This document shows positions 4,867-21,232 of a stretch of DNA of 64,000 bases, piece by piece (position 1 is the stretch's first letter; each line of letters begins with the position of its first letter). This DNA is from Patescibacteria group bacterium (GTDB taxonomy: Bacteria; Patescibacteriota; Minisyncoccia; UBA6257; JACRHW01), in assembly GCA_028865725.1 (NCBI GenBank), contig JAGWJP010000003.1, positions 65,697 through 129,696 on the forward strand, given 5' to 3'. The notes under the pieces were generated by a model. That model had not been told where the DNA came from. It was given only the letters and a program-made list of their open reading frames with translations, and did no database searches. A program made the translations under genes and the position numbers.

Positions 4867-5814
4867 ATGAATATCATTTTGCCTGATTATAAACAACTTG
4901 CCCACGATTTTTTTGAAAATAACCAAAAAAATCTTGAAGTACCCGAAGCGAAATATGCGGAAGCTATGTTGTGGCTTCAACGTGCACGTGCCCAATATAT
5001 TGCACTTAATCGTCCTGCCGAAGAGGGAGACATTGTCGATATTGATTTTGATACGACAGTGCATAATGTTCCGCTTGAAGGAGGGAGTGGAAAACATCAG
5101 AAATTTGTGCTGGGAAAAGGAAAGTTTGTACCGGGGTTTGAAGAACGTATTCAGGGGATGAGTATAGGGGAAACAAGAACGTTCACCCTTACAGCACCTG
5201 CCGATTATTGGCTTACTGAATTACGCGAAAAACCTCTTACATTTTCAGTTTTTCTCCATAATGTGCAAAAAGAAGTTCTTCCCGAATTAGATGATGCCTT
5301 CGCGCGGTCCATTGGCAGATTTGAAAATCTTGCTGAATTAAAAAAGAATATAGACGAAGGTCTTCATGAAGAACAAAAAGAAACAGAAAAACGTCGTTTG
5401 CGTGCAATGCTTCTCGATGTGTTAGCGCGCGAGACGCGCGCTCCTATTGAGCCGGAGGCTATCGACAGGGAAGCGGAGCGCATTGTGGATGAGTTTAAGG
5501 CATCGTTGGGATCGAATAGTGGTAATTTTTTGAAGTATTTGGCACAAGTGGGAAAAACAGAAGATTCCCTTAAACAAGAATTACACGGTGAGGCAGAAAA
5601 AAATATTACCATTGCTCTTCTTCTTGGCCATATTGCTGTCAGAGAGAATATTACAGTATCAGAAGGTGAGATTACCAAAAAAGTTCAAGAATTGATTGAA
5701 ACAAGCAAAGATTCCGAAAAACCCAAAAAAGAGGATTTGCCGTCACTTTCGATGTATGTTAAGAATATGTTGGTCGCAGAAAAAGTGCTGGTATTTTTAG
5801 AGGACCAGGCATAA
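4867..5814 (+). CDS. tig: trigger factor lacking the N-terminal ribosome-binding domain (FKBP PPIase + C-terminal chaperone domain only)
   Basis: FKBP-type PPIase block GDIVDIDFD...GKGKFVPGFEERIQGMSIGETRTF. C-domain resembles E. coli TF (PELDDAFARSIG ~ PELTAEFIKRFG; ALLLGHIAVRENI ~ GLLLGEVIRTNEL). Followed by clpP, the classic tig-clpP synteny. Only 24 nt separate it from nusA, so no room for an N-domain. Confidence 0.85.
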   Translation: MNIILPDYKQLAHDFFENNQKNLEVPEAKYAEAMLWLQRARAQYIALNRPAEEGDIVDIDFDTTVHNVPLEGGSGKHQKFVLGKGKFVPGFEERIQGMSIGETRTFTLTAPADYWLTELREKPLTFSVFLHNVQKEVLPELDDAFARSIGRFENLAELKKNIDEGLHEEQKETEKRRLRAMLLDVLARETRAPIEPEAIDREAERIVDEFKASLGSNSGNFLKYLAQVGKTEDSLKQELHGEAEKNITIALLLGHIAVRENITVSEGEITKKVQELIETSKDSEKPKKEDLPSLSMYVKNMLVAEKVLVFLEDQA

Positions 5815-5845
5815 CAGTAATTAATAATATAATTTTTACGTAGAT

Positions 5846-6436
5846 ATGAATTTAATTCCTACTGTCATAGAAAAGTCGAGCATGGGGGAGCGTGCATATG
5901 ATATTTATTCACGCTTACTCGAGGAGCGTATTATATTTTTAGGAGGGCCCATTAATGACGCGATTGCGAACACGATTATCGCCCAAATGCTATATCTTGA
6001 GCATGTAGATCCTAAGAAAGACATCCTTTTTTATATCAATTCTCCCGGTGGAATGGTTACCGCGGGGCTTGCTATTTATGATACGATGCAAGCGATTAGG
6101 CCTGATACATCTACTGTGTGTGTGGGTGTTGCTGCATCAATGGCGGCAGTATTGCTCGGTGGCGGTAAAAAAGGAAAGCGTCTTGCACTTCCAAATGCTG
6201 AAATGCTTTTGCATCAGGTTATGATGGATGGAGTGGGGGGGCAGGCAACGGAGATTGAAATTACGGCAAAACAGGTTCTTAAAATGAAAGATCAATTAAA
6301 TCAAATTCTCTCAAAGCATACAGGCCAAACTCTTGCAAGAATAGAAAAAGATACCGATCGTGATTTTTATCTTTCTTCTGAAGAGGCAAAAAAGTATGGA
6401 CTGATTGATGATATTATTAAACCACTGAAAAAGTAA
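5846..6436 (+). CDS. clpP: ATP-dependent Clp protease proteolytic subunit ClpP
   Basis: ClpP signature YINSPGG, catalytic Ser in [11 protein letters not shown], His in EMLLHQ, Asp in DTDRDFYLS. Confidence 0.95.
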
Positions 6437-6440
6437 TTCA

Positions 6441-6560
6441 AAAACCTTCGATATTGGCACATAGCTTTGTCGGAAACTGAGTTTTTTATTCGTCGTATTA
6501 CAATACGCCTCATAAAAAGCCTCGTTTCCTTCGCGCTCTGTATCCAATCTCGAAGGTTTT
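6441..6560. repeat. long imperfect inverted repeat (17/18 bp arms about 85 nt apart) immediately after clpP
   Basis: AAAAACCTTCGATATTGG (6441-6458) pairs with CCAATCTCGAAGGTTTTT (6543-6560); possible large terminator or structured element. Confidence 0.4.
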
Positions 6561-6656
6561 TGCGACAGATTGGATCAGATATTATAGGGCGTAAATGATC
6601 TTGTGAAGTTTGTGTATATTTGGTATTTTGTATATGTCTACTTTAGGCAGACTGAA

Positions 6657-6727
6657 GCGGGATTAGTATAGTGGTAGTACGCGACCTTGCCAAGGTCAAG
6701 GCGCCAGTTCGATTCTGGTATCCCGCT
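6657..6727 (+). tRNA. tRNA-Gly (anticodon GCC)
   Basis: Cloverleaf deduced by eye: acceptor GCGGGAT/ATCCCGC, T-arm GCCAG-TTCGATT-CTGGT, anticodon loop TTGCCAA. 71 nt, no encoded CCA. Confidence 0.88.
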
Positions 6728-6935
6728 CAGATGAAGTTTTTGGCTAAAAAACCCTTGAACAAATCAGAGTTTTTTGGTTTGAGTAGGTTGGAAAATTTGT
6801 TTTATTCTGAGTTTTCACTCATCCGACAGATATTTATTCGCACAACATTTTGAACGTTCCCCGCAGCCGACAAACTGGACAAATATAATACTATATTGTT
6901 TTTAGTTCGTCGAAAGTCGAAAAAGGAGGAAACAG

Positions 6936-9761: not shown

Positions 9762-10248
9762 AGAAATTTGAGGAAAAGAGTTTTCCATCGAGCATAAATG
9801 ATGTTTGCAACAATACAATACTGCTGGTCGCATAGGGGAGATACTGTTGGAAGGAGAGTTCTGTCGCTGGAAGGGCATTATTGTTCAGTGGGAGTGGATC
9901 GGCCGAACCAAGTTGTATACGGATATTTCGTTGGTTGTCATCTATTGTAATAGGGTTACTGCCGTAATCTTGTTTAGTAACCACAAGGGCAGGTGTTGTA
10001 GTGCCAATAGCGGGTTCGGTAATGATTGATCCTTCGAGAACCCATTCTATTTTTTTAAGGATAAAATTTGCGTCTTCTTCCACGAGGGATTTTCTCGCTA
10101 TTTCAGTCTGGTTTACCGTAATTGCGTAAAATGTACCAAAGAGCGTTGTAAGGATAAACGAGGTAAGTGCAAGATAGAGTATGGTTTCTAGCAGAGTAAA
10201 CCCAGTGTGGTTATGGAGGACATATCGCTTTTTTCCAAAATATTTCAT
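9748..10248 (-). CDS. prepilin-type N-terminal cleavage/methylation domain protein (minor pilin/pseudopilin)
   Basis: HTGFTLLETILYLAL motif. Confidence 0.8.
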   Translation of the reverse strand: MKYFGKKRYVLHNHTGFTLLETILYLALTSFILTTLFGTFYAITVNQTEIARKSLVEEDANFILKKIEWVLEGSIITEPAIGTTTPALVVTKQDYGSNPITIDDNQRNIRIQLGSADPLPLNNNALPATELSFQQYLPYATSSIVLLQTSFMLDGKLFSSNFYVQK

Positions 10249-14557: not shown

Positions 14558-15769
14558 ATGAAGAGAATGTTTCCAGATAAAGATTGGATTTCCCACGCCC
14601 TTACACATAATGTGGAACGTGTGGTGGGGGAAGAGGATCTTGGGCACCGTCTCCTCACCGGACGGCCGCTACGCATTAAATTCGGAGTAGATGTGACACA
14701 TCCGCTTATTCACCTGGGGCACGGAGTGAGTTTATGGAAAATGCGGGAATTTCAGGAGCACGGGCACAAGGTCTTGTTTCTCATAGGGGATTTTACTACC
14801 CGCATCGGTGACCCCACGGGAAAGAGTAAAACACGCCCAGAGCGCACCGAAGCAGAGATAGAACGTGACGCGAGGTTATATATTGAGCAGGTCACCAAGA
14901 TTTTAATTGACGATTCTTCTGTGTTTGAGGTGCGTAGAAATTCGGAATGGTATGGTATGATGCCGCTTAGTGAATTTTTGGGTCTTTGCAGAAAAATTAC
15001 CCATGCACGCCTTATTGAGCGCGATATGTTTCAAAAGCGTATGGGAGAAGGGAGTGAAATTTATATGCATGAGTTGCTCTATCCCATCTTGCAAGGCTAC
15101 GATTCTGTTGTGCTTAAATCCGACCTTACCATCATTGGTTCTGATCAGCTTTTTAATGAGATGATGGGGCGCCACTATCAGACATTATTTGGCCAGTCTC
15201 CCCAAGCCATTATGACGACGGTGATTACCCCAGGGCTTGATGGAAAAGAAAAGCAATCGAAGTCTCTTGGAAACTTTATCGCAATCTCTGATACGCCAAG
15301 CGATATGTATGGCAAAACAATGACACTCCCCGATGAACTTATTGTGACCTATTTCCGCGTGTACACGTTTGCAAGCATGGAGGAGATTGATGCATACGAA
15401 ACTGAACTTAACAACGGTGCAAACCCCCGTGATGTGAAGATGAAACTTGCGCATGCGCTTGTCTCTCTCTATCATGGCACAGAGGCGGCGGACAATGCTC
15501 AGGAGAATTTTGTAAATACGTTTCAGAAGAAACAGGTGGGTGAGGATGTAGGTGAGGTGACCGTGAAACTCCCGCTCAGTATCACGGAGTTTCTTAAAGA
15601 GTCAGGTCATGTGAAATCCAATTCCGAAGCGCGTCGCCTTGTTGATGAGCGCGGTGTTCGTATGGAAGGGGAGACCATTACAGATCCACAACATATGCTT
15701 GAGGAGGGTGACAATGGAAAGATCATCAAGGTAGGAAAACGTTATTTTTACAAGATCGTCACGCAGTAA
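14558..15769 (+). CDS. tyrS: tyrosine--tRNA ligase
   Basis: Class I HIGH (HPLIHLGHG) and KMSKS-like (KQSKSLGN) motifs, C-terminal S4 domain (ARRLVDERGVRMEGE). Confidence 0.9.
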   Translation: MKRMFPDKDWISHALTHNVERVVGEEDLGHRLLTGRPLRIKFGVDVTHPLIHLGHGVSLWKMREFQEHGHKVLFLIGDFTTRIGDPTGKSKTRPERTEAEIERDARLYIEQVTKILIDDSSVFEVRRNSEWYGMMPLSEFLGLCRKITHARLIERDMFQKRMGEGSEIYMHELLYPILQGYDSVVLKSDLTIIGSDQLFNEMMGRHYQTLFGQSPQAIMTTVITPGLDGKEKQSKSLGNFIAISDTPSDMYGKTMTLPDELIVTYFRVYTFASMEEIDAYETELNNGANPRDVKMKLAHALVSLYHGTEAADNAQENFVNTFQKKQVGEDVGEVTVKLPLSITEFLKESGHVKSNSEARRLVDERGVRMEGETITDPQHMLEEGDNGKIIKVGKRYFYKIVTQ

Positions 15770-15779
15770 TCTTGGCGGC

Positions 15780-16740
15780 CTACAAAATGGGGCTCACCCA
15801 TCTTTCTTTATAGTTACACTTTGCCGTAGACTATGAGTTCCAAAAAGGAACCAGGCAAGAAGCAAAGATAGGAAACTTGAATGTATTCCTGGAAGAATTT
15901 TTAAATTTTCGATGGAAGGCACCAGTGCGATGGTTGACGCCTTTTTTCGAAAATTTGAAAACGACGCATGGCGGCGCGTTTAAAAGTTTTTTTCCTGTTT
16001 CGTCCTTTAAGGACTCATCAGTGTCGATTCACATCGACAGACAGGGGGAGAGGAGCGCCTCTCCCACGGACTCGTTTTTCAACAAGTCCTAGTATGATTT
16101 TCTTGGCTTCTGATTTGGCGAGGAATCAGAAGCCGGTTGCGTGTCCGCCCACGGCTTTTTGCAGGAAAGCTCCTGTCGAGACATAGCGCTGCAGGTCTCG
16201 ATTCTGGCTTTGCAACATCACCCATGAACCAGTCGCGACGTGGCTCAAGGGGGTTACACCACTCCATTTGGAAATTGCACCCACCACCCTTGGTAGTCGG
16301 GCGCAACCTCTCTTCTCACACTTGGCGTTTTTAGGGAGTGTGAGAGGAGTGGCTATGGCACTGCGGGAACCCTTCGCCCCGCTTTATAGCTAAACTTACC
16401 CCCGGGTGTGCGGCGGTGAGTTTAGCGCGCGCCGGATATGCCGGCGGGGCGTGTGCCATACACCGTTTTTCAGCCTTTACTGCGAGCGGTCGGTTGCCGC
16501 ACGCGGCACGCGGAGTATCCGCATTTCGTTCTTCACCTCCTTTCTTGTCTAATTACCACGAGAGGGAAGCGAGCTAAGGATTGCGGAGTGTGGTACCTGA
16601 TTCGGATAGTGGGTGTAGTATTAATTCCCAACCGTCAGGGCTTCACAGTTCCACACGTGCTTAGTTCACTTGCGTCTCGTGGCAACTCGCGCTTGACCTT
16701 CTTTCATTGTGCTGCTTGCATTATAGCAAATAGAATTTAA
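15780..16740. ncRNA. ~0.9-kb GC-rich ORF-free island with multiple stable stems; candidate large structured RNA(s), identity unresolved
   Basis: GC about 60-65% versus about 42% in flanks; six-frame ORFs all <100 aa with implausible composition. Perfect hairpins include GGGAGAGG-AGCG-CCTCTCCC (16046-16066) and GCTAAACTTACC...GGTGAGTTTAGC (16388-16426). Strand unknown. Confidence 0.4.
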
Positions 16741-16927
16741 TTTGTCAAGCATAGCTGACATATTGTAGAAAAATACTAGGTTTTTCTTAATATTTACGTA
16801 TAATTTCTATGTCCGAATTTTCTAACACTTTTTGATTTCATATTCATAAGTGAAACTTATGTGTAAACATAGATAAGATAAGGTGTGTATACTAGGTACA
16901 TATTTGACACAAAGGGCCAAGGGAAAC

Positions 16928-16956
16928 TTGACCAAAATATCAGTATGTGCTATAAT
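16928..16956 (+). promoter_or_regulatory. near-consensus sigma70 promoter TTGACC-N17-(TGc)TATAAT
   Basis: TTGACC 16928-16933, 17-nt spacer ending TGC, TATAAT 16951-16956. Confidence 0.6.
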
Positions 16957-16962
16957 TTATTC

Positions 16963-17256
16963 GAGTAACGTTGGAGGACAATCGAAATGAACTGGTAGGA
17001 TGAAAAGACTGGCGGGTTAAGAGGGTTTAGGGGAGGTGTAAAAAACATCGCTTGCACCCGCTCTCTCCGTCCAGTATTTTTCACTCTTTTCATTTTTCGA
17101 GTTTTCCAACAAGAAAGGAGGAGTCGCCCATGCTCTGGTAACATAGGCGACGATTTAAAAGGAATGGCGGGGGGGCGCGGAAAAAAGAAAAAGGTTCTTT
17201 ATTCGTATGCCCCCAAGCACCAGAAAGGCCGTGTGGAGACACGGCCTTTATTTTTT
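16963..17256 (+). ncRNA. candidate small RNA (~290 nt), bounded by strong promoter and intrinsic terminator, no ORF
   Basis: Starts ~7 nt after the TATAAT box; ends at the terminator listed at 17226-17256 (stem GGCCGTGT/ACACGGCC + TTTATTTTTT). Only 3-codon ORFs inside, although one has a perfect SD (AAAGGAGG-N7-ATG CTC TGG TAA). Confidence 0.45.
17226..17256 (+). terminator. rho-independent terminator (plus strand)
   Basis: GGCCGTGT-GGAG-ACACGGCC-TTTATTTTTT. Confidence 0.7.
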
Positions 17257-17278
17257 ATGTGGTAATCTTCCTCCAGGC

Positions 17279-18058
17279 TTATTGATTGTATTGTTCGGCG
17301 GCATCCCACGCGAGATTAAAAATTACTCGAAACGAGGAGGCAATATCATTGCTTTGGATCGTAACACCAAGCAACTGCTCGCCATAAGAGATTAAGACGA
17401 GGTAGTCCTGACCATATACAGTGACACTACTTGTAAAAGGGAACTTATCTTTTGGAATATAGCGCGCTTCGCGTAACACGTTTTCGCTTGTGGCACCTGT
17501 GAGAGGGCCTTCAGCGCGGGTGTAAATGACTTTGTTGCGAAGTTTTTTATTTGAACGCTCTTTGCTGTAGGTTGATTCATAGTTCGGGAAGACGCGGAGG
17601 AGTTCATCAAGAGGGGTGAACCCCACAATCTCTTCCGTGACCGTCTCCGCAAGACGCAAAAATTCTTCTTGCATCGCGATAATACCTTCTTTTCCTTCGT
17701 AAAATTTTACTTTTGGTCTATTTTCCGTGAGATTGAAGAGCGCTTTGAGTTCAGGAATAATTTCTTGGAGGTAGGTGTGTTTGAGCGCAATGTCCGCTTT
17801 CTCTTTTTCAAGGAGACGATCAAGCTGTTCAGGGGATTCCGCGGAAAACAATGTTTTTTTTCCTGATTCTGCAGTGGTAACAAGTCCGTTTTTCATGAGG
17901 GAGTCGAGAATCACGTACGTGGTAGGGCGTTGTACCTCTGCTTTTTTCGCGATATGTTGTACCGTGGCCTGTCCTAATTCAAGAGTTGCAAGATAGACTT
18001 TTGCTTCTTTTTCCGAGAGGCCGAGTTTTTCAAGATTGCGTTCAAGGGGCGTATTCAT
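17279..18058 (-). CDS. TrmB-family transcriptional regulator (sugar-responsive type)
   Basis: N-terminal wHTH LGLSEKEAKVYLATLELGQATVQHIAKKAEVQRPTTYVILDSLMKNGLV typical of TrmB; C-terminal effector domain. Confidence 0.75.
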   Translation of the reverse strand: MNTPLERNLEKLGLSEKEAKVYLATLELGQATVQHIAKKAEVQRPTTYVILDSLMKNGLVTTAESGKKTLFSAESPEQLDRLLEKEKADIALKHTYLQEIIPELKALFNLTENRPKVKFYEGKEGIIAMQEEFLRLAETVTEEIVGFTPLDELLRVFPNYESTYSKERSNKKLRNKVIYTRAEGPLTGATSENVLREARYIPKDKFPFTSSVTVYGQDYLVLISYGEQLLGVTIQSNDIASSFRVIFNLAWDAAEQYNQ

Positions 18059-18706: not shown

Positions 18707-21232
18707 CTATTGAAGTGCTTCGTAGAGAAATTGTCCGTACATGATCTGGGATGGTGCGGTTTTCCCATGGGCTATGCTTTCAGAAAGTTCGATGAGATTG
18801 TGCGTGAGGGCACGATCAATCTTTTTTGTCGAATCTTCTTGTGTGCGCGCCCAGGCGAGTAGGGTATCGAATTCATGCTTACCGCGTTCCCTATCAAGGA
18901 TTTGTTCACGTTCCCATTTTTTTTCAAGGAGTTCTAAGGAGGCAGAAAGGAAAGGGAAAAGATCCGATGCGCCAATAAGATCGATTGGTATTCCGTGCAG
19001 TTCCGCGTTATGGGCGCTGCTTATGGACCGCGCGGCTCTTATATCGGCGTTTAAACTTTCATCATATTCATCTTTCCGTTTTTGAAGCGTTGCCACCGAC
19101 GCGCGTATGCGTTCCTGTTCTTTGCGGTTACGCTCTATGTCTGCGCGTAATGCGGGTATACCAAGTTTTTCTTCTTTTAGGAGCCGTTTTCCCCCCTTAA
19201 ACACTTTAAGTGATTCAGTAAGGATATTGATTTTTTGTTGCAGAGCTCTCAAGGCAGACTCTATGGCATTGATTCTTGTATGCGCGTCTTGTAATGTGTT
19301 TTGCTCTTCGGGAGTGAGCGGCTTGGATGCATGATGAGCGTTTCTCAGGAGCAATTTCCACTGTTGTACGCGAGGATCTGCTTGTATTTCATTCCACATT
19401 TTTTCAAGTATGTGAACAATGTCGCCGTTCGCGGGAGGTAGGTTTTTGGATATCAATTCAATCTTGAGCTGAAGGTCGAAGATATTCGCAGCCTGTGTTC
19501 CAGACGTACGCTGAAAATTTGGATCTTGTTCTAAGGATGCTATTAAGAACGGGCTTACATGACTATCAAAGTCTTCTTTTGATTGCCAGGTGCGGTCTAC
19601 GCGTATGGCCTCCCATTCTTGTTGTGCCTCTGCGGCGGCAGTGGTGTGCGTGCGGGCAAATTTTACGAGACGACGCATTACATCAGTCAAGGCGTAGGAA
19701 AAGATCGCCGATTGGTCATCTCCAAATTCGTGGCAGAGTTCATGAAGATAGGTTGCGATCACATCATCGATTTCTCCTGTGCTCAGGGAATCCTTACTAA
19801 TCCAGACAAAATCTTCATCATAACGCCCTGCAAGGTAGGGGTGTTTTCCCGTAAAAACATGAATTTCTTTTGCGCGCAGATCGGAAATACGGGCAAGCGC
19901 CCCCCTCGCTTCGTGCTCAAGCCCCAATAGCCGCATAGTATGGTATATCGTTTGTGTGTCGGTTTCTTGAAGTATTTGTTGCGCATAACGCTTGAGGCAG
20001 GCGATTCGTTCTTTAATTTCCGGAGAGGGGGCATGTTCATAAAGTTCAGTGATTTCTTCATGCATCGTTGATGCGCACATCATTCCTGCGCGGCTCATAA
20101 ACTCATGACAGGGGATAAACCCGAGTCCTTTGAGCGTTTCCAAAAAATCCTTTTCATCGAGTGCGATATAATTTCGGTCAAAGGAAACCACAAGGCCGAG
20201 CGAATTGCATCGGTCGACCACTGTGCGCAAAAATTCTTTTCCAAACCATTTTTTCCTATCAAAGGACATATTATTTTCGGGAACGGCATAGAATGGTTCT
20301 AGGATTTTAAGTGTGTTCATAAGATCTTCTGGTTCCATGGAATCCACAAGAAAAGGAAGGAAAATCTGGGTAACTTCATTTTCAGTGATAATATCTCTGT
20401 CTCGCGAAAGATTTATTGTTCCCCATTCCGTTTCCGGGGTCTCATGCGACCAACAGGTAAAATGAGGAAGTGTATTCCATGTGTCGCGCACGTCGTAATG
20501 GATGCGTTGGCCGTTTAAGTAAAAATTTCCAGGCGTACCCATGTGCAATGAAAACCCTCCTTGTTCATTGTCGAAGGCGGGGTTTTGAAAGTCAGGGTTG
20601 GTGTCATGATAAAAAAGATCACGCGCGTCAATAAATGTTTGTACCGTTCCCTGCTCGCTGCTTACGAGTTCTAATGTGTTTCCTTCTAGAGCCTCGTCTC
20701 GGGCGGTAAGTTTTACGTAGAGTCCTCGCAGGGATGTTTTTTCCGTAGAACCCACAGGGGGCGTATCGAGGTAAAAATCGAGTATCCAATCTTGTGAAGA
20801 AAAGCGTACTTTTGAAAACCCAAAATCGCGCAACATGTGAAGCGCCATGATTTTTGTGCCTTCATGGTGTCCCCCTCCCGATTTTTTCGGGTTTTCTTTA
20901 TATCCGCCTCCCAAATGAAGAAGACGGGTGTAGGGATATTCTGCGATTCCCCGAATGACCACTACGGATCTGTCTGGTTTTTCATCTGTTTCAAATTCTA
21001 GGCCGTCAAGCGTGAAGTTGTTCGCATCGAAAAAATTTTGCCACGCATCGCGCGCTACGCGTTCTCGTGTCCACGGTGTTTTAGACATATAATTTTCGAG
21101 AATGCCAAGGTAGTAGCCGTGTTCCAATTTGTGTTCGAATTCCTGATTTTCTCGACCGCGGAAATGCCGTGTTAATGACTCATTCATGAATTGCAATGGT
21201 ATTGATAAGTATGTCTTTAGTGTACACGGCAA
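18707..21232 (-). CDS. large hypothetical multidomain protein (841 aa): GHKL-ATPase-like N-terminal motifs, central HExxH, C-terminal coiled coil
   Basis: ARDAWQNFFDA (QNxxDA N-box-like), GGGHHEGTKIMAL (Gly-rich G2/G3-like), LHELCHEFGDD (HExxH). Residues ~620-800 are heptad-rich and charged. No confident family assignment. Confidence 0.6.
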   Translation of the reverse strand: MPCTLKTYLSIPLQFMNESLTRHFRGRENQEFEHKLEHGYYLGILENYMSKTPWTRERVARDAWQNFFDANNFTLDGLEFETDEKPDRSVVVIRGIAEYPYTRLLHLGGGYKENPKKSGGGHHEGTKIMALHMLRDFGFSKVRFSSQDWILDFYLDTPPVGSTEKTSLRGLYVKLTARDEALEGNTLELVSSEQGTVQTFIDARDLFYHDTNPDFQNPAFDNEQGGFSLHMGTPGNFYLNGQRIHYDVRDTWNTLPHFTCWSHETPETEWGTINLSRDRDIITENEVTQIFLPFLVDSMEPEDLMNTLKILEPFYAVPENNMSFDRKKWFGKEFLRTVVDRCNSLGLVVSFDRNYIALDEKDFLETLKGLGFIPCHEFMSRAGMMCASTMHEEITELYEHAPSPEIKERIACLKRYAQQILQETDTQTIYHTMRLLGLEHEARGALARISDLRAKEIHVFTGKHPYLAGRYDEDFVWISKDSLSTGEIDDVIATYLHELCHEFGDDQSAIFSYALTDVMRRLVKFARTHTTAAAEAQQEWEAIRVDRTWQSKEDFDSHVSPFLIASLEQDPNFQRTSGTQAANIFDLQLKIELISKNLPPANGDIVHILEKMWNEIQADPRVQQWKLLLRNAHHASKPLTPEEQNTLQDAHTRINAIESALRALQQKINILTESLKVFKGGKRLLKEEKLGIPALRADIERNRKEQERIRASVATLQKRKDEYDESLNADIRAARSISSAHNAELHGIPIDLIGASDLFPFLSASLELLEKKWEREQILDRERGKHEFDTLLAWARTQEDSTKKIDRALTHNLIELSESIAHGKTAPSQIMYGQFLYEALQ

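Follow-up and report, generated by a model that had tools for sequence, protein, structure and literature searches.

Start-stop elements and other very short regulatory open reading frames (ORFs) recruit a ribosome with a good Shine–Dalgarno (SD) sequence and present it with a near-immediate stop codon, acting through ribosome occupancy rather than through a peptide. Upon efficient translation of its tryptophan (Trp)-codon ORF, the Trp attenuator RNA rnTrpL of Sinorhizobium meliloti is released at the terminator, after which it functions in trans (PMC7968998). Early codons of the NGG type, UGG included, are linked to the drop-off of peptidyl-tRNA in the work of de Valdivia & Isaksson (2004/2005) and Macvanin (2007), as summarised in a later paper (PMC12204400), one of the studies cited there dealing specifically with 'early UGG and GGG codons'. 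Here we describe a predicted small RNA (sRNA) with two tandem mini-ORFs in which a Trp codon directly precedes the stop codon, encoded in a stretch of 64,000 nucleotides (64 kb; hereafter, the window) from a Patescibacteria group bacterium (assembly GCA_028865725.1, contig JAGWJP010000003.1, positions 65,697 to 129,696 of the forward strand). Comparison with related loci indicates that the predicted RNA is a new, lineage-restricted small RNA family outside any described RNA family, and very likely a genuine conserved RNA gene whose tiny ORFs are under translation-type constraints.

An earlier note on this DNA had proposed a candidate small RNA delimited by a near-consensus sigma-70 promoter and an intrinsic terminator on the same strand, and both boundaries were recovered:

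16928–16956, + strand: sigma-70-type promoter of the small RNA, TTGACC-17-TATAAT, with TG just upstream of the −10 element (11/12 match)
17224–17256, + strand: intrinsic terminator, AAAGGCCGUGU-GGAG-ACACGGCCUUU, then A and UUUUUU
17279–18058, − strand: gene of a TrmB-family transcriptional regulator (PF01978, E = 3e-17), 259 aa from the ATG of the public annotation

In a consensus scan of 4.2 kb, this promoter ranks second among the promoter-like sites, the first being a 12/12 site on the other strand (16748 to 16720). Such sites are not enriched in the region (6 found versus 6.4 expected), so that the quality of the two top sites is what counts. The terminator, which consists of a stem of 11 pairs (17224–17249; 6 G-C pairs, loop of 4) and a T-run (17251–17256), is the top-ranked terminator-like site of the region. 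The convergent TrmB gene has its stop codon about 20 nt away and probably shares this terminator with the small RNA. No same-strand gene follows the terminator, in agreement with the earlier claim that the unit is not the leader of any downstream gene. With transcription predicted to start near 16963, the RNA up to the T-run has a minimum free energy of −111 kcal/mol compared to −82.3 ± 4.85 kcal/mol in 200 dinucleotide shuffles (z = −5.92; 0/200 as good). The predictions make an independent promoter-to-terminator unit of about 290 nt, rather than a leader, well supported, and we infer that the small RNA is expressed. No second copy of the unit was found elsewhere in the 64-kb window with a covariance model. 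The TrmB protein of the window is 100% identical to a protein from a metagenome-assembled genome (MAG) annotated as 'Patescibacteria group bacterium', and its homologues form a graded series that includes Candidatus Berkelbacteria.

The unit had been labelled as devoid of ORFs, with only three-codon frames listed between promoter and terminator. The list omitted a 33-codon ATG ORF (17164–17265, + strand), which has no well-spaced SD and is not conserved in relatives. The label itself does not do justice to the unit, which carries two conserved, SD-led mini-ORFs ending in Trp and stop, whose conservation tracks the reading frame. The second of these is the SD-led ATG CTC TGG TAA that had been singled out from the start, whereas the first, which is better conserved, had been overlooked:

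16973–16977, + strand: SD1 (GGAGG), 9 nt upstream of the ORF1 start by direct count
16987–16998, + strand: mini-ORF1, AUG AAC UGG UAG (Met-Asn-Trp-stop), conserved
17114–17121, + strand: SD2 (AAAGGAGG), 8 nt upstream of the ORF2 start by direct count
17130–17141, + strand: mini-ORF2, AUG CUC UGG UAA (Met-Leu-Trp-stop), SD-led

The anti-SD duplex formed by TGGAGGA at SD1 ends 8 nt before the start of ORF1 (−9.3 kcal/mol with the 16S tail), and that formed by AAAGGAGGA at SD2 ends 7 nt before the start of ORF2 (−11.6 kcal/mol).

Homologous units are convergent with TrmB in about nine lineages of Patescibacteria, at TrmB identities down to 50%. The corresponding contig loci of relatives (L-numbers) were fetched either via TrmB homologues, at 76, 76, 73, 64, 58, 58, 50 and 45% identity, or through a metagenome scan; all comparisons below refer to this sample of about nine lineages of one clade, which are not independent and whose alignments were fitted to the model. 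The closest relatives share the gene order SOD, TrmB, a variable gap and then TyrRS, and the unit lies downstream of TrmB in L005/L006/L007, L008/L009/L010, L013, L022, L054, L014/L015, L016 and L062. TrmB is the only neighbour that is constant across all lineages with the unit; the upstream flank has been rearranged repeatedly among relatives, and the unit retains its own promoter. A near-consensus promoter and a terminator of its own, the conservation of which the earlier note had considered decisive, are present in every complete copy (L005/L006, L008, L013, L054, L014, L016 and L062), with unit lengths of about 280–590 nt versus ~290 nt in the window.

The homology is not apparent from nucleotide similarity: BLASTN of 15700–17400 against the related loci yielded no match over the small RNA and only one at 16559–16752, around the opposite-strand promoter. 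Following this miss, it was seen by reading the syntenic gaps downstream of TrmB, where L005/L006/L007 and L008/L009/L010 share the blocks GAUGAACUGGUAG, CUGRCGGGKUAAGGGG and AAAGGAG...AUG.UGG between the TrmB-convergent promoter and the terminator. With a covariance model of the 5′ domain, a further copy was recovered (24.6 bits, E = 0.004) in the Berkelbacteria MAG L013, where it has a TTGACA-17-TATGAT promoter and a 15-bp terminator. The metagenome scan, based on a pattern common to four known copies, returned 44 loci, among which only L022, L054 and L023 (a duplicate of L010) are genuine; the others arose by chance within coding genes, and all variants with AAT or TAA proved to be false positives. 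In L054, the order is SOD, TrmB, then the unit, which again has a promoter and a terminator to itself. The L022 and L054 contigs derive from JGI lake and sediment samples, and those of L009/L010 from Hainich H51 groundwater. Distant members escaped both BLASTN and the sequence-driven covariance model and were recovered by a search for the reading-frame signature (SD, start, NNN, UGG, stop), which found the units of L014/L015 and L016; in L014 and L016, a 12/12 promoter and a long-stem terminator lie beside TrmB. In L011/L012 (TrmB identity of 73%), the unit has been lost and another gene abuts TrmB, and in L063 (CPR3; TrmB identity of 45%), a promoter-to-terminator unit at the corresponding place contains no Trp-stop ORF and is not counted as a member. 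A scan of species-representative genomes with TyrRS yielded relatives only at ≤39% identity and was uninformative. A small RNA family specific to a Berkelbacteria-related clade of Patescibacteria and always positioned tail-to-tail with TrmB appears well supported by these comparisons, and the constant position may reflect regulation by TrmB, a shared bidirectional terminator or mere inheritance.

The 12 nt of mini-ORF1 are identical in six copies (window, L006, L008, L013, L022 and L054), and the distant relatives have AUG CCC UGG UAG (L014), AUG CAG UGG UAG (L016) or a 7-codon ORF (L062) in its place. The products of ORF2, and those of all mini-ORFs in the distant lineages, are as follows:

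Window, ORF2: MLW-stop
L013, ORF2: MDW-stop (GUG GAC UGG UAG, GUG start)
L006, ORF2: MWWNHLN-stop
L008, ORF2: MLWNIAL-stop
L054, ORF2: MGWNRSL-stop
L022, ORF2: MGWD... (contig ends within the ORF)
L014/L015, mini-ORFs: MPW-stop and MDW-stop (the latter GUG GAC UGG UAG in L014)
L016, mini-ORFs: MQW-stop, MHW-stop (AUG CAC UGG UAG) and a third ORF, MHWLV-stop
L062 (TrmB identity of 50%), mini-ORFs: MGGGGGW-stop and MNGPTKRRSLEGVGGW-stop, 7 and 16 codons, with good SDs

There are two mini-ORFs per unit in each lineage and three in L016. The SD duplex ends 6–8 nt before the start codon in 10/10 ORFs, the start codon is AUG or, in two lineages, GUG, and codon 2 is free (AAC, CCC, CAG, CUC, GAC, CAC, UGG, UUG, GGA and GGC), the difference between GGA in L054 and GGC in L022 being synonymous. 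By contrast, UGG is invariant and forms the last or third codon of every mini-ORF in the nine lineages; in L062, both longer ORFs end in-frame with GGC GGC UGG UAG. UAG terminates 9/10 of the mini-ORFs, yet it is the rarest stop in the 52 long ORFs of the window (12 versus 23 UAA and 17 UGA), a preference that, for lineages that are not independent, is only a hint. The strict signature occurs six times in 738 kb of background strand, all six in loci that were selected for containing ATGAAYTGGTAR, as compared to two or three times per unit of 0.3–0.6 kb in the family. The retention of SD spacing, start, UGG and stop, with free intervening codons, is the pattern expected of translated frames, and we infer from it that the mini-ORFs are translated. 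The suggestion of the earlier note that ORF2 is reminiscent of start-stop regulatory elements was right in direction, except that X-Trp sense codons intervene before the stop.

All complete copies share a common plan, namely, a long hairpin, a small hairpin enclosing ORF2, a further hairpin and the terminator. In the window, the predicted hairpins upstream of the terminator are:

16970–17110, + strand: long imperfect hairpin P1, which base pairs SD1 with a pyrimidine-rich stretch and carries mini-ORF1 on its 5′ strand
17008–17075, + strand: core hairpin of P1, ACUGGCGGG...CCGUCCAGU, 21 pairs with a conserved bulged U
17123–17128 (GUCGCC) with 17146–17151 (GGCGAC), + strand: small hairpin enclosing mini-ORF2, from the fold
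17166–17220, + strand: G-run/C-run hairpin, GGCGGGGGGGCG...UGCCCCC, with a short C/A-rich single strand, CCAAGCACCAGAAA, after it

In the core hairpin, 92.9% of the cells are paired versus 82.4 ± 1.9% with shuffled partners and 44–60% with slid partners (0/500 shuffles as high), and 9/21 pairs are altered on both sides, in counts that come from only six related sequences aligned to the model itself. The G-runs, previously thought capable of forming long-range stems, are instead part of the local hairpin at ~17166–17220; all complete copies have a hairpin at this position, its sequence differing from copy to copy. In L014 (about 5250–5195) and L016 (about 3935–3880), both on the − strand, the long hairpin contains an apical block, CCAAGGAAUCUUG...AACCGGAAUNCGUUAUAACCGG, that is absent from the window's clade and may be a binding module for a protein or a ligand, added to the hairpin in a lineage-specific manner.

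In the free RNA of the window, SD1 is paired with 17101–17110 (GUUGGAGGAC:GUUUUCCAAC, −17.4 kcal/mol, 0/300 shuffles as good; paired probability of 0.77). The partner stretch varies by lineage, with CUUGGAAGG:CUUUUCAAG, GCUUGG.AGGA:UUCUCCAAGC and GGAG.GUGA:UCAC.GCUCC found elsewhere, and the energies of the SD1 duplexes range from −11.6 to −19.3 kcal/mol (0 to 39/300 composition-matched shuffles as good). The paired probability of SD1 is 0.62–1.00 in 8/8 modelled lineages, with different partner sequences. Pairing of SD2 with the C/U-rich tail of the terminator, which RNAalifold suggested, was rejected, being no better than with shuffled tails (47–116/300 as good).

The small RNA could not be assigned to any known family. 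In a search of the window with Rfam 15 (4227 models), a check that the earlier note had recommended, it had no relevant match at the gathering score or at E ≤ 10, including 6S and SRP, and the homologous units of L006, L013, L054, L014, L016 and L062 had no relevant match at E ≤ 1. Trp_leader and T-box were likewise without a match at E ≤ 10, and there is no downstream gene on the strand that a T-box could control. A weak match to Leu_leader (21.6 bits versus a gathering score of 50) is on the opposite strand and covers the terminator only. Neither tmRNA (transfer-messenger RNA) nor tmRNA_permuted matched in 15700–17400 at E ≤ 10, and ARAGORN called none in 15000–18000.

Overall, the small RNA probably acts by engaging ribosomes and not as an ordinary non-coding RNA. 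We assign a probability of roughly 0.45 to the combined explanation, that is, a conserved RNA gene in which brief translation reports on translation status. The more specific proposal, under which the supply of charged tRNA-Trp or of RF1, the UAG-specific release factor, would be sensed, is tentative and on balance doubtful. Under this proposal, the tiny ORFs would receive ribosomes mainly in the course of transcription, when the sequestering strand has yet to appear, because SD1 is locked in a helix in the finished RNA. A ribosome would then meet a single Trp codon and, within a few codons, the RF1-specific UAG, and its dwell time would be set by the supply of charged tRNA-Trp and/or RF1. The dwell time would decide the folding of the surrounding hairpins and hence the stability of the released RNA, its partners or the exposure of its pyrimidine strands. 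The unit would be a free-standing 'leader peptide' sensor, the output of which is the RNA itself, as in the case of rnTrpL, with no control of read-through at its own terminator.

Several observations weigh against the explanation by brief translation and sensing. Translation of the mini-ORFs is predicted from sequence patterns only, and 'Trp then stop' is not absolute, given that ORF2 runs four codons past Trp in three or four related lineages. The identity of the 12 nt of ORF1 across the window's clade extends to third positions and to the minority Asn codon AAC and thus exceeds coding need, so that an RNA-level or protein-binding role could underlie it. In several lineages, SD1 pairing taken singly is only modestly above shuffles (32–39/300 as good). 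To model a ribosome, ~30 nt with UGG in the A site were forced single-stranded, a purely thermodynamic treatment, in which a ribosome at either UGG left the pairing probability of the terminator unchanged (8/8 lineages), the accessibility of SD2 moved in no consistent direction and no concrete structural switch was found among the eight lineages. Finally, no Trp-related gene was seen near the unit when the seven ORFs around it were scanned against Pfam.

On the other side of the unit, the top-ranked promoter of the region faces away from the small RNA and would drive a divergent partner transcript, with the following features in the window and its relatives:

16720–16748, − strand: divergent partner promoter, TTGACA-17-TATAAT, 12/12 with TG, ~180 nt from the small RNA promoter
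about 16560–16712, − strand: conserved partner leader, corresponding to L005 8465–8612, L008 about 10060–10170, L013 3184–3310, L014 5636–5760 and L016 4301–4430
15780–16712, − strand: ORF-free partner stretch of ~930 nt between tyrS and the small RNA, GC content of 53–60% versus about 43% around it
15992–16047, − strand: type III hammerhead, 48.7 bits versus a gathering score of 48.5, with intact CUGAUGA/GAAAC core
L062 5229–5310, L014 5780–5855 and L016 4768–4933, all + strand: tRNA-like domains of tmRNA (RF00023) without the tag region

The divergent promoter pair recurs in L005, L013, L014, L016 and L063, and six lineages show conservation over the initial ~130 nt of the partner transcript, with the blocks ...GCAAGCGAAC UAAG ... 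CCUGRCGGUKGGG ... ACCCA ... CCGAAUCAGG ... CUUAGCUCGC... and an outer stem in which RNAalifold, run on a poor alignment, reports double changes at 8/20 pairs; this leader may constitute a structured leader or RNA motif, the second one here without a previous description. The ORF-free stretch folds at −370.8 kcal/mol versus −283.4 ± 7.8 kcal/mol in 20 shuffles (z about −11) and has no Rfam match besides the hammerhead. A hammerhead is found at the corresponding relative position in L013 (3906–3966, + strand; 32.5 bits, E = 0.0013), and stem III shows compensatory changes between the window and L013 (CUGU:ACAG versus UCUGU:ACAGA). The ribozyme would cut the partner transcript and leave a 2′,3′-cyclic phosphate end. 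The tRNA-like domains of L062 and L014 score above the gathering score (68 and 53.5 bits) and possess the G3-U70 pair, a GGUUCGAUUCC T-loop and an encoded CCA, with 8–19 nt in place of the tag-coding/pseudoknot region of about 300 nt. In L016, the T-loop of the domain carries an insertion of ~110 nt, which falls short of the group I introns known in tmRNA genes, the shortest reported intron-form gene having 545 bp. ARAGORN calls none of the three, and no such domain was detected in the window, L005, L008 or L013. Tag-less tmRNAs are rare, being known from plastids, mycobacteriophage DS6A, Nasuia and the group 9FT-COMBO-53-11 (PMC11915505). The idea that the small RNA supplies the missing coding piece of such a tmRNA was rejected, considering that the tRNA-like domain closes on itself, the frames use SD and AUG, and the window's clade is without the domain.

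The surroundings of the partner are variable. An SD and a small ORF follow the partner leader in L013 (3640–3813, 57 aa) and L016 (4494–4703, 69 aa), with ...PPTPGSR(K/R)Y.W in common near the C-terminus; the counterpart in the window (16478–16525, − strand) is a 15-codon frame, MRILRVPRAATDRSQ-stop, which looks like a truncated remnant, a resemblance noted by eye only. The TrmB–TyrRS interval (15770–17279 in the window; L005 7780–11232, L008 7780–12784, L011 7780–9951) has a different gene content in every lineage, including, in relatives, 82-aa and 309-aa genes without a Pfam match, a methyltransferase and a 219–253-aa gene, none of which was found in the window by TBLASTN. The ORF-free ~900 nt were also considered as a decayed copy of the 82-aa/309-aa genes and rejected for want of TBLASTN similarity. 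In its behaviour, the interval resembles a hotspot of insertion, as would be in keeping with a tmRNA-type gene nearby. RtcB, the RNA ligase for 2′,3′-cyclic phosphate ends, is encoded just upstream of TrmB in L016 (1370–2530), and in L063 a gene immediately beyond the divergent promoter (5190–6866) encodes a Ro60/TROVE protein; the presence of RNA-repair-type genes beside this locus is suggestive, given the hammerhead and tRNA-like RNAs. Downstream of the tRNA-like domains, L014 (5893–6114) and L016 (5134–5355) share a 223-nt block that is 87% identical, lies mostly outside called genes and is far more conserved than its surroundings. Farther away, an 841-aa protein (18707–21232, − strand) has no Pfam match and is conserved beside SOD in relatives (828–830 aa in L008, L011 and L054).

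Other explanations of the tiny frames differ mainly in what they make of the ribosome. The minigene anatomy (SD, start, few sense codons, stop) is seen throughout, the exceptions being L062 (7 and 16 codons) and ORF2 of L006, L008 and L054 (7 codons), and the transcript could be a natural minigene RNA, on which abortive translation with drop-off of fMet-X-Trp-tRNA(Trp) ties up tRNA-Trp and/or ribosomes as a growth brake or translation throttle, held in check by SD sequestration and peptidyl-tRNA hydrolase. This is consistent with the strong SDs and the one or two sense codons between start and stop, and a near-consensus promoter combined with sequestered SDs would fit a potent element that is normally silent. 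In Escherichia coli, tRNA sequestration increases as minigenes become shorter (PMC2490762), NGG codons at positions 2–5, UGG included, suppress expression via peptidyl-tRNA drop-off according to the studies mentioned above (PMC12204400), and regulation by a minigene is documented for the axe-txe toxin–antitoxin system (PMC8708949). We nevertheless consider it unlikely. The 7- and 16-codon ORFs of L062, with Trp as the last codon, weaken a strict 'UGG at codon 3' rule, that is, a position within the NGG drop-off window, and ORF2 of L006, L008 and L054 passes Trp altogether; furthermore, the drop-off rules derive from E. coli, their application to bacteria of the Candidate Phyla Radiation (CPR) being an extrapolation, and the large conserved hairpins and the UAG preference would be left unexplained. 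No more probable is a purely structural non-coding RNA, either protein-binding or antisense, in which the SD-like, AUG, UGG and UAG strings would be parts of helices or binding sites and never translated. The SD-to-start spacing fixed at 6–8 nt (10/10), the replacement of AUG by GUG, the restriction of free variation to codon 2 and the in-frame preservation over 7 and 16 codons in L062 all speak for frames that are read, whereas the invariance of ORF1 over 12 nt in the six copies of the window's clade and the mostly paired state of SD1 could equally be structural. In several lineages, UGGUAG does pair across the long hairpin with sequences of the CUAUCA/CCAG type, its partner in L014 being a CUACCA just upstream, and helices of purine- and pyrimidine-rich strands inevitably hold SD-like strings. 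As for an antisense function, the invariant 12-mer has no complement in the 64-kb window, with two matches at ≤2 mismatches compared to 3.9 expected, so that no antisense target is indicated there, and the pyrimidine-rich strands that exist in the small RNA are paired in the models.

The explanations that involve the neighbourhood appear less probable still. The Trp-UAG ORFs might generate or report slow-terminating ribosomes for, or together with, a divergent partner RNA of the ribosome-rescue type. A near-consensus promoter facing away at about 150–180 nt in the window, L005, L013, L014, L016 and L063, the partner leader conserved in six lineages, the tRNA-like domains, which exceed the gathering score in L062 and L014 (68 and 53.5 bits) and are weakly detected in L016, and the precedent, however rare, of tag-less tmRNAs (PMC11915505) are compatible with such a coupling. 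However, the window, L005, L008 and L013 have no detectable tmRNA-like domain, a hammerhead being present instead in the window and L013, and other genes separate or replace the partner in L008 and L054; tmRNA genes are known hotspots of island insertion, so that the adjacency may be historical, and the mini-ORFs use SD and AUG rather than a tmRNA-style resume codon. We regard the coupling as highly improbable as an explanation of the unit, and a functional link of the small RNA with ribosome rescue is a possibility rather than a finding. A Trp-responsive attenuator, with read-through running antisense into the convergent TrmB-SOD operon, receives very little credence. The layout of short ORFs ending in Trp followed by an intrinsic terminator is that of a classical attenuator (PMC7968998), and the unit is tail-to-tail with TrmB in every lineage, but the pairing of the terminator is unchanged under the ribosome mask in 8/8 lineages, a stable hairpin and 80–130 nt or more separate ORF2 from the terminator, in L014 the unit is separated from TrmB by a second terminator, and neither Trp_leader nor any other leader model of Rfam matches. 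The classical Trp attenuator was rejected: a short ORF with a Trp codon near its 3′ end is present, but the next gene is convergent in every lineage, and both the terminator's indifference to ribosome position and the missing Trp_leader match apply here too. Recoding or read-through of UAG within a protein-coding gene, or a small protein gene called in error, is effectively refuted as an explanation, even though the frame of ORF1 in the window stays open for 88 codons past UAG and a 132-aa ORF is called across the unit in L016: the post-UAG frame closes after 6–7 codons in five lineages (L006, L008, L054 and L013 included) and has unrelated lengths in the others, UAG and UGA are both ordinary stops in the genes of the window, and the 132-aa ORF is absent from L014, the closest relative of L016. 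The most far-reaching proposal, a new class of ribosome-gated, free-standing RNA in which tandem X-Trp-UAG mini-ORFs probe both elongation (Trp-tRNA) and RF1-dependent termination and which is evolutionarily paired, via the divergent promoter region, with an unusual RNA locus of the ribosome-rescue type, made up of the conserved leader and either a tag-less mini-tmRNA or a hammerhead-processed RNA, would amount to an RNA-only translation-surveillance module of minimal-genome bacteria; we consider it a long shot.

CPR bacteria, or Patescibacteria, account for a large share of bacterial diversity, and in a limited full-text literature search we found no paper on their regulatory RNAs. Against this background, a minimal-genome lineage retains a dedicated, strongly promoted RNA gene, the conserved information of which is a pair of three-codon frames ending in Trp-UAG, a layout that is familiar from leader peptides and minigenes and here stands apart from any downstream gene. 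Should the frames be translated, the unit would illustrate, in a clean and natural form, an RNA that has brief ribosome occupancy as its function, and UGG, UAG and SD would provide a testable handle on the monitoring of tRNA-Trp and release factors in organisms that depend on a host for amino acids. A practical lesson is that a reading-frame signature finds members of an RNA family that are missed by BLASTN and by a sequence-driven covariance model. The neighbouring locus, with its conserved hammerhead and, in relatives, a tag-less mini-tmRNA, merits a study of its own.

Among the described systems, rnTrpL, with its peptide peTrpL, of S. meliloti and other bacteria resembles the small RNA in being a short terminated RNA with a small ORF that has decisive Trp codons near its 3′ end (PMC7968998). 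However, rnTrpL sits upstream of trpE(G) and forms mutually exclusive terminator and antiterminator helices, whereas the small RNA has no downstream gene and no antiterminator in the models; peTrpL has 14 aa with consecutive Trp codons, as opposed to mostly three-codon ORFs, two in tandem, with a single Trp directly before UAG; and the two RNAs have no sequence or Rfam similarity. Because the defining features of attenuators were looked for and not found, the unit is not filed as one. Minigenes, namely, the bar minigenes of phage lambda, the axe-txe minigene (PMC8708949) and experimental AGA minigenes (PMC2490762), likewise combine SD, start, one or two sense codons and stop on a transcript that does not code for a protein, with the last sense codon read by a scarce tRNA. 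Known natural minigenes are, however, incidental or embedded in operons, unlike the dedicated, conserved and structured RNA gene described here, with its two minigene copies, SD sequestration and fixed Trp-UAG ending. In comparison with start-stop elements, the X-Trp pair always intervenes, the stop is specifically UAG and no regulated gene lies downstream. Dual-function sRNAs are similarly promoter-to-terminator transcripts that also contain an ORF, translated in the known cases and predicted to be so here, but their ORFs encode active peptides, usually of <50 aa (PMC12310071), and it is improbable that a tripeptide whose middle residue is free constitutes the functional product. With tmRNA (RF00023), the small RNA shares the structured RNA carrying a short reading frame, and in some relatives a tmRNA-like gene is its divergent neighbour; it differs in having no tRNA-like domain, an SD and AUG instead of a resume codon and no peptide resembling a degradation tag. 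The small RNA is, on this comparison, a variant of the sRNAs that bear leader peptides or minigenes and not a member of any of their families.

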